A stretch of DNA of 60,985 bases, filler included, from 5 parts of 5 records of this genome joined end to end with filler, not necessarily neighbours in it; one strand, 5' to 3'. Counted from the first letter of the whole stretch, positions 1 through 3,869 are shown. A program made the numbers and translations. Notes: generated by a model not told the origin, from the letters alone.

Positions 1-4
1 TGCA

Positions 5-1399
5 ATGTGGATTCCAGATTTATTCATGAAACGTGTTCAAGAAGATGGAAACTGGACATTGATGTGTCCAAATGAATGTCCACATTTATTTGATTCTTAC
101 GGAGATGAATTTGAACGATTATATGAAGGGTACGAAGCTTCTAATAAAGGAAGAAAAACAATTAAAGCACGTGTGCTTTGGGAGAAAATCTTAGAATCTC
201 AAATAGAGACAGGAACTCCTTATATGTTATACAAAGATGCAGTAAACCGTAAAACAAACCATAAGAATTTAGGAACCATCCGTTCTTCTAACTTATGTAC
301 AGAGATTATGGAATATACGGCAAATGATGAGGTTGCAGTTTGTAATTTAGCATCTATTGCTTTGCCAATGTTTGTTACAGAAAAAGAAAACGGAGAAAAG
401 TTCTTTAACCATAAAAAACTATTCGATGTAACTAAAAAGGTAACTCGTAATTTAGACACGGTTATCGATATGAATTATTATCCTGTAATTGAAGCAGAAA
501 ACTCTAACTTTCGTCATAGACCAGTTGGATTAGGAATTCAAGGATTAGCAGATACATTTATCAATTTACGTTTGCCTTTTACTTCTGATGAAGCAAAAAA
601 ATTAAATCAAGATATCTTTGAAACCATGTATTTTGCTGCAGTAACTTCTTCTATGGAAATTGCCAAAGCTAAAGAGCCATATTCTACATTTAAAGGTTCT
701 CCAATGTCAGAAGGAGAATTCCAATTTAATATGTGGGGAATTAAAGATGATGAATTAAGCGGAAATTGGGATTGGGCAAAATTACGTAAGAATGTAATGA
801 AACATGGTGTTCGTAATTCATTATTAGTTGCACCAATGCCAACAGCATCAACATCTCAAATTTTAGGAAATAATGAAGCCTTTGAGCCATACACTTCTAA
901 TATTTATACAAGAAGAGTATTATCTGGAGAGTTTATTGTAGTTAACAAACATCTATTAGAAGATTTAGTAGAATTAGGATTGTGGAATAACAGTATGAAA
1001 GAAGATATTATGCGTGCAAACGGTTCTATTCAACATATTGAAGAAATTCCTGCAGAATTAAAAGAACTATACAAAACAGTTTGGGAAATGAGTATGAAAG
1101 ATATTATTGATATGGCACGCCATAGAGGATATTTCATCGATCAGTCTCAATCATTAAACTTATTTATGCAAGATCCAGATTTTGGTAAGTTAACTTCAAT
1201 GCATTTCTACGGATGGAAATCTGGATTAAAAACAGGAATGTATTATTTAAGAACAAAATCTGCTGTAAATGCAAAACAGTTTACATTAAATATAGAAAAG
1301 AAAGAAGAAGACAAACCAATGTCTGCAGATGAATTTAAAGCAATGGTAGATGCATCGAGAGACGCAGGACCGGATGATTGCTTAATGTGTGGATCTTAA
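5..1399 (+). CDS. nrdA: Ribonucleoside-diphosphate reductase class Ia alpha subunit, 5'-truncated by window edge
   Basis: SSNLCTEI catalytic loop, [34 protein letters not shown] and C-terminal CLMC redox pair. Confidence 0.97.
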
Positions 1400-1449
1400 T
1401 CAAATTCACAATCGTCCCTCGTGACACAAATTAAATTAAAAGTTGATAG

Positions 1450-1473
1450 AGAGAAGCAGCAATGCTTCTCTTT
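1450..1473 (+). terminator. Intrinsic terminator after nrdA
   Basis: AGAGAAGCA-GCAA-TGCTTCTCT hairpin followed by a short T tract. Confidence 0.7.
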
Positions 1474-1515
1474 ATTATGAAAAATTAAATTATTATAAGA
1501 GTAAATATTTGACAT

Positions 1516-1630
1516 AAAAAAAGCGATACTGGACATATCGCTCTTGGTGTATTTTAAATTTTTTCCTTGGCGGGCTAAAAATTTATAGTTGTTTGAAAGA
1601 TTTTTGAGATTAACTCATCTCCCTTTCGTT
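1516..1630 (-). ncRNA. Candidate ~115-nt small RNA divergent from the orphan gene
   Basis: Minus-strand Bacteroidota-type promoter upstream, hairpins at 1595-1627 and 1555-1585, terminator hairpin 1522-1542 followed by T7 on the minus strand; no credible ORF. Confidence 0.5.
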
Positions 1631-1633
1631 CTT

Positions 1634-1665
1634 CAATATTACGAAATAGGATTCTTTCCGCCAAG
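1634..1665 (-). promoter_or_regulatory. Bacteroidota sigma-A-like promoter (-33/-7)
   Basis: Minus strand CTTG-N20-TAATATTG versus consensus TTTG-N19-21-TAnnTTTG. Confidence 0.45.
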
Positions 1666-1781
1666 TTATTTTTCTAAATTTTATTTAAACAGAAATAAAG
1701 CTTTATGACCTTTGTTTTAGCTTTATAACACACTTGTTAACAATAATTATAAAAGTTAATAAGTATAATACAGATAATAAG

Positions 1782-2453
1782 ATGGAATATAAAATTTCAA
1801 TAAACCCTTTAGTTGCTTTTTCTAAAGGAACAGTATCAAAAAAAAGAAGAATTATTCTTGATCAGAAAAACCCTTCAGTTTTTAAAGTAGGTTGGTATCA
1901 AACACCAAGAGCTTGTATAAAGAAATCAATCTCTCAAAATGGAGATAGTGATGCAATTATTAAAGGTCTAGAAAGGTTGAAAGAGAAGGTAGTTGAAAAA
2001 CCAAGGCAAATTCAAAACAAGACTGCATCTATAGAAGCAATGAGAAAGTATTTGAATATAGAATTTCCACAGATTTTGAAAAACCATAATCTAAACATAA
2101 TTAAGAAAAGACTTGTAAAGTCTACTTGGATAAATGGAGTAGAAATCTTAGTTTCTCCGGATGTAGTATTCACTTTTGATTATAAAGGGAAAAAGTATAT
2201 TGGTGGAGTAAAGATTCATTTATCAAAAGGAGATATTTTTGATTTAAATGAATCAAAAATGGTTGCAACAATTTTACATAAGCATATTTTGGAAATATCA
2301 CCAAGTTATAATGCTATTCCTTTACATGAAACATGTTTGTCAATTGACGTTTTTGGGCAAAGAATTGTTGCGTCTGCAATAGATACTGAAAGAGTCTTAA
2401 ATGAAGTTACTGAAATATGTAATGAAATTAAGCAAATTTGGAATGTAGCTTAA
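1782..2453 (+). CDS. Orphan basic protein, possibly PD-(D/E)XK nuclease-like fold
   Basis: 223-aa ORF from ATG 1782 (track start 1734 is a TTG); VSPDVV...GGVKIHLSK motif spacing; followed by a terminator. Confidence 0.75.
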   Translation: MEYKISINPLVAFSKGTVSKKRRIILDQKNPSVFKVGWYQTPRACIKKSISQNGDSDAIIKGLERLKEKVVEKPRQIQNKTASIEAMRKYLNIEFPQILKNHNLNIIKKRLVKSTWINGVEILVSPDVVFTFDYKGKKYIGGVKIHLSKGDIFDLNESKMVATILHKHILEISPSYNAIPLHETCLSIDVFGQRIVASAIDTERVLNEVTEICNEIKQIWNVA

Positions 2454-2470
2454 TAATTATAAAATGTGAT

Positions 2471-2501
2471 AAAAGAGAAGCTATAAAGCTTCTCTTTTTT
2501 T
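2471..2501 (+). terminator. Intrinsic terminator after orphan gene
   Basis: AAAAGAGAAGCT-ATAA-AGCTTCTCTTTT hairpin with T tract. Confidence 0.8.
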
Positions 2502-2528: not shown

Positions 2529-3869
2529 ATGATGAATTGGGAACAACTCTTATCACTAAAAAGATATGGAGATACAGAAAAACGCCATAGAGCACAACAA
2601 GATGAAACCCGTTTGGGTTTTGAAGTAGATTTTGATCGAATTATTTTCTCAACAGCATTTAGAAGCTTACAAGATAAAACGCAGGTAATTCCATTATCAG
2701 AAACAGATTTTGTGCATACGCGATTAACACACAGTTTAGAAGTATCTGTAGTAGGGAGAAGTATTGGTAGACGAGTTGGTAAAGTATTATTAGAACGTCA
2801 TCCGAATTTAGTAGAATTGGGTTATACCTTTAATGATTTTGGAGCCATAGTAGCTGCAGCATCTGTAACGCATGATATTGGAAACCCGCCATTTGGTCAT
2901 TCTGGAGAAAAAGCCATCGGAGAGTATTTTAAAACAGGTAATGGAGCTACATTTAAAAATGAATTATCTCAAAAAGAATATCAAGATTTAATAGATTTTG
3001 AAGGGAATGCCAATGGATTTAAAATTCTTACAGAAACAAGAGAAGGTATTACTGGCGGTTTAAGACTGTCATACGCTACATTGGGTGCTTTTATGAAATA
3101 CCCAAAAGAGTCATTACCCAAAAAGCCAACCAATCATATTGTAGATAAAAAATATGGTTTTTTCCAATCAGAAAAAGAAGCTTTTATTGATTTAGTAGAA
3201 GACTTGGGATTGAAACAAAAATCTACTACCAAAGATATAGCATTTTATAGACATCCATTAGCTTATTTAGTAGAAGCTGCAGATGATATTTGTTACACTA
3301 TTATTGATTTTGAAGATGGAATTAATTTAGGTTTAATAGAAGAAGATTACGCGTTAGAATACATGTCTAAATTGATTAAAAATATCAATAGAGATAAATA
3401 TTACGCATTACAACATACTAAAGATAGAACTGCGTATTTAAGAGCAATTGCTATCAATTCTTTAATTGATGAAGCAGTTGATATTTTTTTAAATAACGAA
3501 AAAGCAATTTTAAAAGGAGAATTTGAAAATTCTTTATTAGATAAATGTAAGTATGAAGCACAAATAAACGACATTATACAAATAAGTATAAGAAAGATAT
3601 ATAAAAGTCATGATGTAGTTGAAAAAGAAGTTGCAGGATATAAAATAATAGCAGATTTATTAGATGTTTTTGTAAGTGCATTAAACAACACTTATAATGG
3701 TAATGCTTCTAATTATGATAAATTAGTATTGAATGTGCTACCTAATGAGTACAAAATTAACTCAGATAACCTGTATGAAAGAATTATGCAAGTATGTAGT
3801 TATGTTTCTAAAATGTCTGATAGTTATGCCATTAGATTACATAAAAAAATAAACGGAAATATTATATAA
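2529..3869 (+). CDS. dgt: Deoxyguanosinetriphosphate triphosphohydrolase (HD domain)
   Basis: RSLQDKTQV, HTRLTHSLEV, HDIGNPPFGHSGE, FEGNANG, EAADDICY. Confidence 0.95.
   Translation: MMNWEQLLSLKRYGDTEKRHRAQQDETRLGFEVDFDRIIFSTAFRSLQDKTQVIPLSETDFVHTRLTHSLEVSVVGRSIGRRVGKVLLERHPNLVELGYTFNDFGAIVAAASVTHDIGNPPFGHSGEKAIGEYFKTGNGATFKNELSQKEYQDLIDFEGNANGFKILTETREGITGGLRLSYATLGAFMKYPKESLPKKPTNHIVDKKYGFFQSEKEAFIDLVEDLGLKQKSTTKDIAFYRHPLAYLVEAADDICYTIIDFEDGINLGLIEEDYALEYMSKLIKNINRDKYYALQHTKDRTAYLRAIAINSLIDEAVDIFLNNEKAILKGEFENSLLDKCKYEAQINDIIQISIRKIYKSHDVVEKEVAGYKIIADLLDVFVSALNNTYNGNASNYDKLVLNVLPNEYKINSDNLYERIMQVCSYVSKMSDSYAIRLHKKINGNII

Follow-up and report, generated by a model that had tools for sequence, protein, structure and literature searches.

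The 60,985-nucleotide (nt) stretch of DNA analyzed here (the window; five parts of five records of one genome joined with filler) carries a small-RNA gene on the minus strand at positions 1512 to 1665. This gene is convergent to the 3' part of nrdA (2 to 1399, plus strand), which encodes the large subunit of a class I ribonucleotide reductase (Pfam Ribonuc_red_lgC; expectation value [E], 5e-162), and divergent from a gene for a protein of 223 amino acids (aa) (1782 to 2453, plus strand). Analysis of the unit revealed a promoter, two hairpins, and an intrinsic terminator. The sigma-A type promoter (1634 to 1665, minus strand) comprises a -33 element, CTTGG (1665 to 1661), and a -7 box, TAATATTG (1641 to 1634). 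The resulting pattern, TTG-N20-TAATATTG, matches the host-type sigma-A consensus, for which the one given in PMC9723704 was used. According to that source, the sigma-A -7 box of Flavobacterium psychrophilum occupies positions -12 to -5; by this rule, transcription is predicted to start at 1629 (minus strand) and to yield an RNA of about 117 nt.

Hairpin 1 (1595 to 1627, minus strand) has the inner stem GAGAU/AUCUC and the conserved loop GAGNUA (1617 to 1605). A small reading frame inside it (AUG AGU UAA) was judged to be non-coding from reading the loci. Hairpin 2 (1555 to 1585, minus strand), identified in the fold, has an A/U stem and a variable G+C-rich loop, AGCCCGCCAAGGA. The motif CCAAG (1543 to 1547, minus strand) lies directly 5' of the terminator and forms the 3' arm of a conserved inverted repeat, the 5' arm of which is the -33 element CTTGG itself. 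The terminator (1512 to 1545, minus strand) was found by a terminator scan and consists of a G+C stem (1545 to 1519) followed by a T run. The minimum free energy of the folded RNA was -26.3 kcal/mol (z score, -3.75), and none of 200 shuffled sequences folded equally well. The complete minus-strand unit that an initial annotation of this DNA had proposed, with its promoter, both hairpins, and terminator, was confirmed.

A scan of species genomes with the 223-aa protein yielded 48 loci, and the Flavobacteriaceae loci among them carried the same minus-strand unit upstream. The expectation of the initial annotation that the hairpins would be conserved beside homologs of the gene at 1782 to 2453 was borne out when these homologs were gathered and their upstream DNA was aligned, and compensatory changes were seen in hairpin 1 and the terminator. 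A covariance model of the RNA was built on 24 sequences and gave 30 strong matches (85 to 149 bits) among the window and the collected loci. In the 24 sequences, 92.5% of the alignment cells formed the expected pairs, versus 43 to 51% when the partners were slid; 10 pairs changed on both sides, and none of 500 shuffles reached the observed values. The terminator paired in 100% of cells, with changes on both sides in five of its seven pairs. Hairpin 1 paired in 96% of cells when 30 sequences were compared, and one of its pairs was AU in 24 sequences, GC in 4, and UA in 1, the A-U pair being replaced by G-C or U-A in five. The hairpin 2 position holds a hairpin in the sequences read, and no part of the RNA varies more than the loop of this hairpin. 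Between close relatives, hairpin 2 was found reverse complemented in two cases, L013 versus L014 and L017 versus L025 (GGGGTCGGATCC versus GGATCCGACCCC), apparently by two separate local inversions.

The promoter was equally constant. The -7 box stood at one fixed place in all 30 loci, as a perfect TAnnTTTG in 23 and with one mismatch in 7, and a TTG was located 17 to 22 nt upstream of it in 30 of 30. Because the box varies only at its two free positions, it bears the signature of a real promoter. In eight loci (L009, L138, L013, L014, L018, L021, L006, and L026), a second perfect TAnnTTTG precedes the main -7 box by 8 nt, in tandem with it. The unit accordingly has its own promoter, its own intrinsic terminator, and a structure with compensatory changes, as a small-RNA gene would, and its transcription is predicted from these sequence features.

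The RNA model gave one strong match per genome in five of five control genomes. In a genus-level sample, exactly one match each was found in 21 of 151 genomes, which marks the RNA and its cassette (described below) as accessory. After duplicates were merged, 40 distinct RNA loci were available, all from marine Flavobacteriaceae; Flavobacterium psychrophilum was not represented among them. No known RNA family accounted for the unit, as the initial annotation had supposed. In a search of Rfam 15, the window's unit matched nothing at E values up to 10, and the sole match in eight other loci (E up to 1) was an unrelated weak one elsewhere in L051. A full-text literature search, judged by titles and the beginnings of abstracts, returned no paper on this RNA. 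Among relatives of genome G001, no match was obtained in 37 same-genus genomes (of 61 searched with a DNA query), one weak match was obtained in 70 genomes of the genus searched with a protein query, and none was obtained in 151 genomes of the family searched with the RNA model, the positive controls having worked; with respect to this locus, G001 is probably not a close relative. A genus search centered on G249 covered the same 41 genomes and added no loci. Scanning of metagenomes with the hairpin 1 motif (80 of 119 stretches) revealed one true match, L138; a weak metagenomic match (L142, 37 bits) was excluded from all counts.

Three Cytophagales loci (L047, L048, and L049) contain distant homologs of the 223-aa protein (28 to 29% identity) that also follow a reductase gene. 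The gap in these loci contains a minus-strand terminator and a promoter-like pair, TTGAC...GGTTTG. The RNA model failed to match the three loci, and the gap may possibly encode an analogous RNA.

Analysis of the genomic setting showed that every RNA locus examined was convergent to a gene for a ribonucleotide reductase large subunit. The adjoining reductase was either of the window-like type (85 to 91% identity) or of a second type (27 to 29% identity), the latter in 8 of 10 new loci. The gene on the divergent side, here called the cargo, was not constant. In the 21 genomes found with the RNA as the query, the cargo belonged to the 223-aa family in 10 and to a family of 103-aa WYL-like proteins in 6. 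In the remaining five, it was a DUF3800 protein (PF12686; E, 2.3e-16) or a protein of 318, 84, 74, or 53 aa. Over all 40 loci, the corresponding numbers were 29, 6, and 5, a tally biased by the protein-first search. The 103-aa and 223-aa families were unrelated in a profile comparison, and the RNA subtype did not track the cargo type. In locus L192, a 40-codon N-terminal remnant of the 223-aa gene (MSKMEYKILLNPFMD...) starts about 128 nt after the RNA and precedes the DUF3800 gene, which is direct evidence of cargo replacement.

The RNA and the cargo start are separated by a constant leader (1666 to 1781, plus strand), which in the window contains the palindrome ACTTGTTAAC (1732 to 1741) ... 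GTTAATAAGT (1755 to 1764). This palindrome (TTATTAAC ... GTTAATAA) lies about 20 nt before each cargo ATG and is kept in front of different cargo genes, with covarying flanks in which compensatory changes are seen. The distance from the 5' end of the RNA model to the cargo ATG ranged from 95 to 149 nt and was 112 to 118 nt in 20 of the 40 loci, among which six different cargo types are represented. The leader also contains a conserved plus-strand motif, TTTATG(A/G)CC (window positions 1704 to 1727 and the same place elsewhere), which opens a frame whose length varies among loci from 4 to 32 codons. The frame was judged by reading to be non-coding. The conservation looks nucleotide level rather than peptide level.

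The cassette is bracketed by direct repeats. The left copy (1435 to 1476, plus strand) is the terminator of nrdA, with the hairpin AGAGAAG-N8-CTTCTCT at 1450 to 1471, and the right copy (2459 to 2500, plus strand) is the terminator of the cargo gene, with its hairpin at 2474 to 2495; both were found by the repeat search, the right copy also by the terminator scan, and the arrangement recurs in other loci. The two copies share 71% identity over 42 nt. The hairpin pattern occurs twice in the window, where none is expected, and only twice in each of the whole genomes G254 and G250. In loci of Polaribacter and Tenacibaculum, the cassette usually lies between two copies of the reductase terminator hairpin. 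Locus L198 has three such hairpins (1430, 2002, and 2517), which suggests two tandem cassettes each ending in a hairpin, and L201 has two (1429 and 2015).

We consider it likely, with a probability of roughly 0.72, that the RNA represents a new small-RNA family and constitutes the constant platform of a cargo-swapping accessory cassette located after ribonucleotide reductase genes. This reading draws on the observed gene anatomy, conservation, single copy, reductase linkage, cargo swapping, and flanking repeats. The cassette, of 0.65 to 1 kb or more, would be inserted directly after the terminator of the reductase large-subunit gene. One half would be the platform, in which the RNA gene is joined by a leader of about 114 nt with the conserved palindrome at its end, and the other half would be the divergent, swappable cargo gene. 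The sigma-A promoter (-33 TTG and -7 TAnnTTTG) would drive an RNA of about 117 nt laid out as a conserved 5' hairpin with the loop GAGNUA, a hairpin with a variable G+C-rich loop, a conserved single-stranded ACCAAG, and the intrinsic terminator. Since the same RNA accompanies unrelated cargo, we infer that its role is cargo independent; most likely, it would control expression across the shared promoter and leader region of the cassette. The regulatory RNAs of Flavobacteriia are poorly charted, and this RNA would add a well-supported new family with clear covariation. It would also mark a compact exchange hotspot for single accessory genes beside an essential conserved gene.

Several points weigh against this interpretation. 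Of the 40 loci, 29 came from the search with the 223-aa query, which biases the tally, and the copy number in the window's own genome is known only for the window itself. Transcription of the RNA and both its 5' and 3' ends are predicted. No RNA target was found: in 28 loci, duplexes between the RNA and the cargo start region had z scores of -2.4 to +2.2, no better than shuffled sequences. Finally, the -33 element and the pre-terminator CCAAG cannot pair inside an RNA that starts after the -7 box.

The last point concerns the inverted repeat, which is itself well conserved. The -33 CTTG and the next one to three bases are complementary to the bases ending in CAAG right before the terminator, and RNAalifold predicted the corresponding helix (P1) unprompted. 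The fifth position of P1 was paired in 39 of 40 loci (G-C in 28, A-U in 4, U-A in 4, and G.U in 3), and the sole exception, L016, has an uncertain anchor; the shifted anchors of L015 and L016 were set by hand. The sixth position had A as its 3' base in 34 of 40 loci. Among the six that depart from it, L061, L043, L026, and L021 have a complementary 5' base, and L015 and L016 have C opposite T. Extension of the core by own partners averaged 1.54 Watson-Crick pairs, versus 0.90 for foreign partners. Further out, about 20 of the first 30 loci have a GAAATAT flank on the promoter side that matches the terminator's 5' arm, with helices of 8 to 10 contiguous pairs, and in L021, L015, L064, and L043, the two sides have changed in parallel; the window's subgroup of eight loci is without this flank, its longest runs being 2 to 5 pairs. 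The suggestion of the initial annotation that the RNA matches its own promoter therefore survives in another form, with the pre-terminator CCAAG complementary to the -33 CTTGG and covarying with it; the form proposed originally, an 8-mer in the hairpin 2 loop, does not (see below). Readings of the CTTGG region as a sigma-54 element or an attC core were a poor fit as judged by eye. As an RNA starting after the -7 box is without the CTTGG arm, the repeat implies either a longer transcript or a role at the DNA level.

If the repeat acts as DNA, the promoter could be invertible. The CTTGG and CCAAG arms, each with a -33 TTG, would bracket about 125 bp with the -7 box and the start site, and a recombinase flip would aim the promoter at the divergent cargo (ON). 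The orientation seen would be OFF, with transcription meeting the terminator before the reductase gene, and the small RNA would be the product of the OFF state. Invertible promoters such as fimS of Escherichia coli and the capsule and other invertons of Bacteroides are well known, and invertons are common in Bacteroidota. The present locus resembles them in having a promoter enclosed by short inverted repeats, a neighboring gene whose presence varies, and a host phylum known for such switches. The covariation of the repeat, the coincidence of its invariant part with exactly the -33 box, and the parallel changes in the outer flank fit this explanation. So do the constant platform with variable cargo and the hairpin 2 inversions described above, which show that local DNA inversion occurs. 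In addition, no consistent sigma-A promoter for the cargo was found on reading of the leaders, no plus-strand scan having been run. However, all 40 loci were in one orientation and none was flipped, with the caveat that assemblies show the majority state only. The repeat is very short (5 to 7 bp, with 4 invariant bp and 0 to 3 Watson-Crick pairs), the -33 box is inside the repeat and not in the segment to be flipped, and in some loci, the two arms differ by one base in the distance from flank to core. The outer flank match is missing in the window's subgroup of eight. No recombinase family was present among the 43 scanned reading frames of the window (62 called), although a distant invertase could exist. 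Moreover, the covariation of hairpin 1 reflects a constraint at the RNA level. An invertible promoter is, on balance, unlikely. Equally tentative is a broader proposal in which the RNA unit would be the switch of an undescribed cassette system at reductase 3' ends: either a promoter flip or an RNA isoform switch would give phase-variable expression of a cargo (nuclease, WYL-like, DUF3800, or other) that is swapped between the terminator hairpin repeats. If the inverted repeat were a switch, the locus would show a new way to control such genes.

The other consequence, a longer structured RNA, appears somewhat less probable still. Transcription would start upstream of the promoter described above, and a CUUGG-CCAAG closing helix would enclose a multi-hairpin core. 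In most genera, the 5' leader GAAAUAUUU could pair with the 5' arm of the terminator, and a riboswitch-like choice between terminator and anti-terminator would gate read-through antisense to the reductase gene. Besides its unprompted prediction by RNAalifold, P1 is seen in many single-sequence minimum free energy folds, and the leader forms helices of 8 to 10 contiguous pairs with the terminator arm in about 20 loci (own versus mean foreign partners, 9 versus 4.45 in L021 and 9 versus 5.24 in L015). The folds of L011, L006, and L026 contain the anti-terminator helix instead of the terminator, and the G.U pairs fit the minus strand. Against these observations, no consistent promoter was found further upstream across the loci, the internal -7 box is conserved exactly like a real promoter, and the leader helix is missing in the window's subgroup. 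Helices in the promoter spacer, which at first seemed to covary, were no better with own than with foreign partners (5.07 versus 4.90 and 6.73 versus 6.42). The sixth P1 position is C.A in 13 of 40 loci, a combination that is a wobble only on the plus strand, and no same-strand gene lies downstream of the RNA. A riboswitch or attenuator is likewise not suggested by the arrangement, as only the convergent reductase gene follows the RNA.

The initial annotation had envisaged a dedicated pair in which the 223-aa protein has the RNA as its antitoxin, decoy, or guide and the hairpin 2 loop reads the promoter. It drew on the 8-mer CCGCCAAG, which occurs in the hairpin 2 loop (1573 to 1566, minus strand) and over the -33 box (1658 to 1665, plus strand) and was considered a non-random match. 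The window contains 4 copies of this 8-mer (expected, 2.15), a number attained in 16 of 100 shuffles, so the 8-mer itself is not rare; two copies within 100 nt of each other would still be unusual a priori. Complementarity of at least 8 nt between the -33 region and the hairpin 2 region was found in 1 of 40 loci, namely, the window, and the other 39 have 3 to 6 nt. The closest relative, L008, differs at both sites (loop, GCCUCUCAAGC; promoter, CCACCAAG), and loop and promoter showed no covariation across the 40 loci. Because the match is found in 1 of 40 loci and the hairpin 2 loop is variable, it is a lineage-specific coincidence; to judge from these comparisons, the match is a product of chance.

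A dedicated pair is very improbable, and the RNA probably does not serve this one protein specifically as an antitoxin or guide: although RNA and gene are adjacent and divergent in 29 loci, the hairpin 2 loop is hypervariable, and 223-aa homologs outside the clade have a small upstream DUF2188 partner that the RNA could replace, one and the same RNA is found opposite at least six unrelated families of cargo (six types other than the 223-aa one) independently of RNA subtype, its hairpin 2 loop is found in both orientations, it has no complementarity to the cargo start region, and neither type III-like tandem repeats nor a type I-like overlap is present. The duplex z scores given above also speak against an antisense action of the RNA on its cargo.

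The locus was also compared with known systems. In the istR-tisB locus, a type I toxin-antitoxin system, a small RNA and a toxin gene are divergent, and istR has nested long and short isoforms. The present RNA is similar in having its own promoter and terminator and in being divergent from a potentially harmful gene, and istR-like nested isoforms are one explanation for the promoter-spanning repeat. In contrast to istR-tisB, no small hydrophobic peptide is encoded by the cargo gene, no complementarity of the RNA to the leader or start of the cargo was found, and the same RNA accompanies unrelated cargoes. A type I assignment is further opposed by the lack of an antisense signal in 28 loci and by the cargo proteins, which range from 53 to 318 aa and belong to unrelated families. 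For a type III (ToxIN-like) system, no tandem repeats were found, and the RNA is divergent from the cargo. Integron arrays share with this locus a constant platform and swappable single-gene cassettes with a similar hairpin at the end of each. Unlike in integrons, the hairpins here are 22-nt terminator-like palindromes and not attC sites with R''/R' cores, and the array comprises one or two genes. No integrase was found in the Pfam scan of the window, nor on reading of the listed frames of loci L061, L062, L066, L192, L196, L198, L200, and L201, in which no family search was made.

The 223-aa cargo protein gave no Pfam, NCBIfam, or PADLOC match. The initial annotation had taken its gene for an orphan; at least 75 homologs were found, among which those from Tenacibaculum, Polaribacter, Algibacter, and Flaviramulus are named. 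An AlphaFold2 model of the protein had a mean predicted local distance difference test score (pLDDT) of 94.3. Top matches of the model in Foldseek were the Cas4-family nuclease ACE1, Dna2, and the AdnA/AddB nuclease domains (E, 1.5e-4 to 1e-2; template modeling [TM] score, 0.45 to 0.51), the best with an E value of 1.5e-4 and a probability of 1.00. The predicted structure thus places the protein among the Cas4/RecB-like PD-(D/E)xK nuclease folds. Residues P126, G141, K144, H146, and D189, on the central strands, are invariant in the family, and D127 is mostly kept. In contrast to Cas4/RecB nucleases (ACE1, Dna2, and the AddB nuclease domain), which it resembles in overall fold, the protein has no Pfam match, carries the motif G-V-K-I-H, and has no four-cysteine cluster; no acidic residue is located two positions before K144 in the family, and a canonical (D/E)xK motif is not evident.

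The 103-aa cargo has six database homologs only. Its model was of moderate confidence (pLDDT, 79.8), and its best structural matches were WYL domains, such as those of BrxR, PafBC, DriD, and CapW, at borderline values (E, 1e-3 to 2e-2; TM score, 0.54 to 0.63). Unlike those proteins, it stands alone and has no DNA-binding domain. In distant homologs of the 223-aa protein outside the clade, a same-strand DUF2188 gene precedes (PF09954; E, 9e-23), and this partner matches the PADLOC candidate PDC-S16 (E, 1.7e-31). DUF2188 has been linked to defense according to a preprint (10.1101/2022.04.27.489752). In one locus, integrase genes adjoin the pair of DUF2188 and 223-aa-homolog genes. The possibility raised by the initial annotation that the locus is a defense module is plausible in view of the Cas4-like fold, the WYL-like and DUF3800 cargoes, and the DUF2188/PDC-S16 partner elsewhere, all of which are indirect indications. 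As several cargoes have defense-like folds, the RNA could be used as a search handle for accessory or defense genes.

Sequence conservation was also noted outside the RNA. The spacer that separates the reductase hairpin from the terminator of the RNA (window positions 1477 to 1511; 45 to 60 nt across loci) is conserved in two flavors, TTTGAGATAAAA or GCTGAGGTAGTAAA, which means that conservation reaches beyond the terminator of the RNA. An exact inverted repeat of 11 nt is present at window positions 1540 to 1550 and 1902 to 1912: the sequence ACACCAAGAGC, from the 3' part of the RNA, recurs in the mRNA of the 223-aa gene at its most conserved motif, YQTPRA. This recurrence is in the same sense and hence not an antisense site; it is probably due to chance.

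To the right of the cassette, the window contains a dGTPase-like HD phosphohydrolase gene (dgt; 2529 to 3869, plus strand; Pfam HD and HD_assoc), a core gene found next to the cassette in many loci. Among the 43 longer reading frames of the window that were scanned, of 62 called, no recombinase or phage family was found (E up to 1e-5), and the window otherwise consists of ordinary chromosomal DNA. The nrdA query was tried on five genomes that lack the RNA and matched three. Two of these showed nrdA, one hairpin, a PanT/PanA-type pair, and dgt, and in the third, nrdA was followed by sdh genes. Genes for a small membrane protein and a SocA/Panacea-domain protein (PF13274; E, 7e-21) occur between the reductase gene and dgt at L061 (2103 to 2919), L066 (2196 to 3045), and L067 (about 560 to 1400), with or without the RNA cassette; they look like a PanT/PanA toxin-antitoxin pair.

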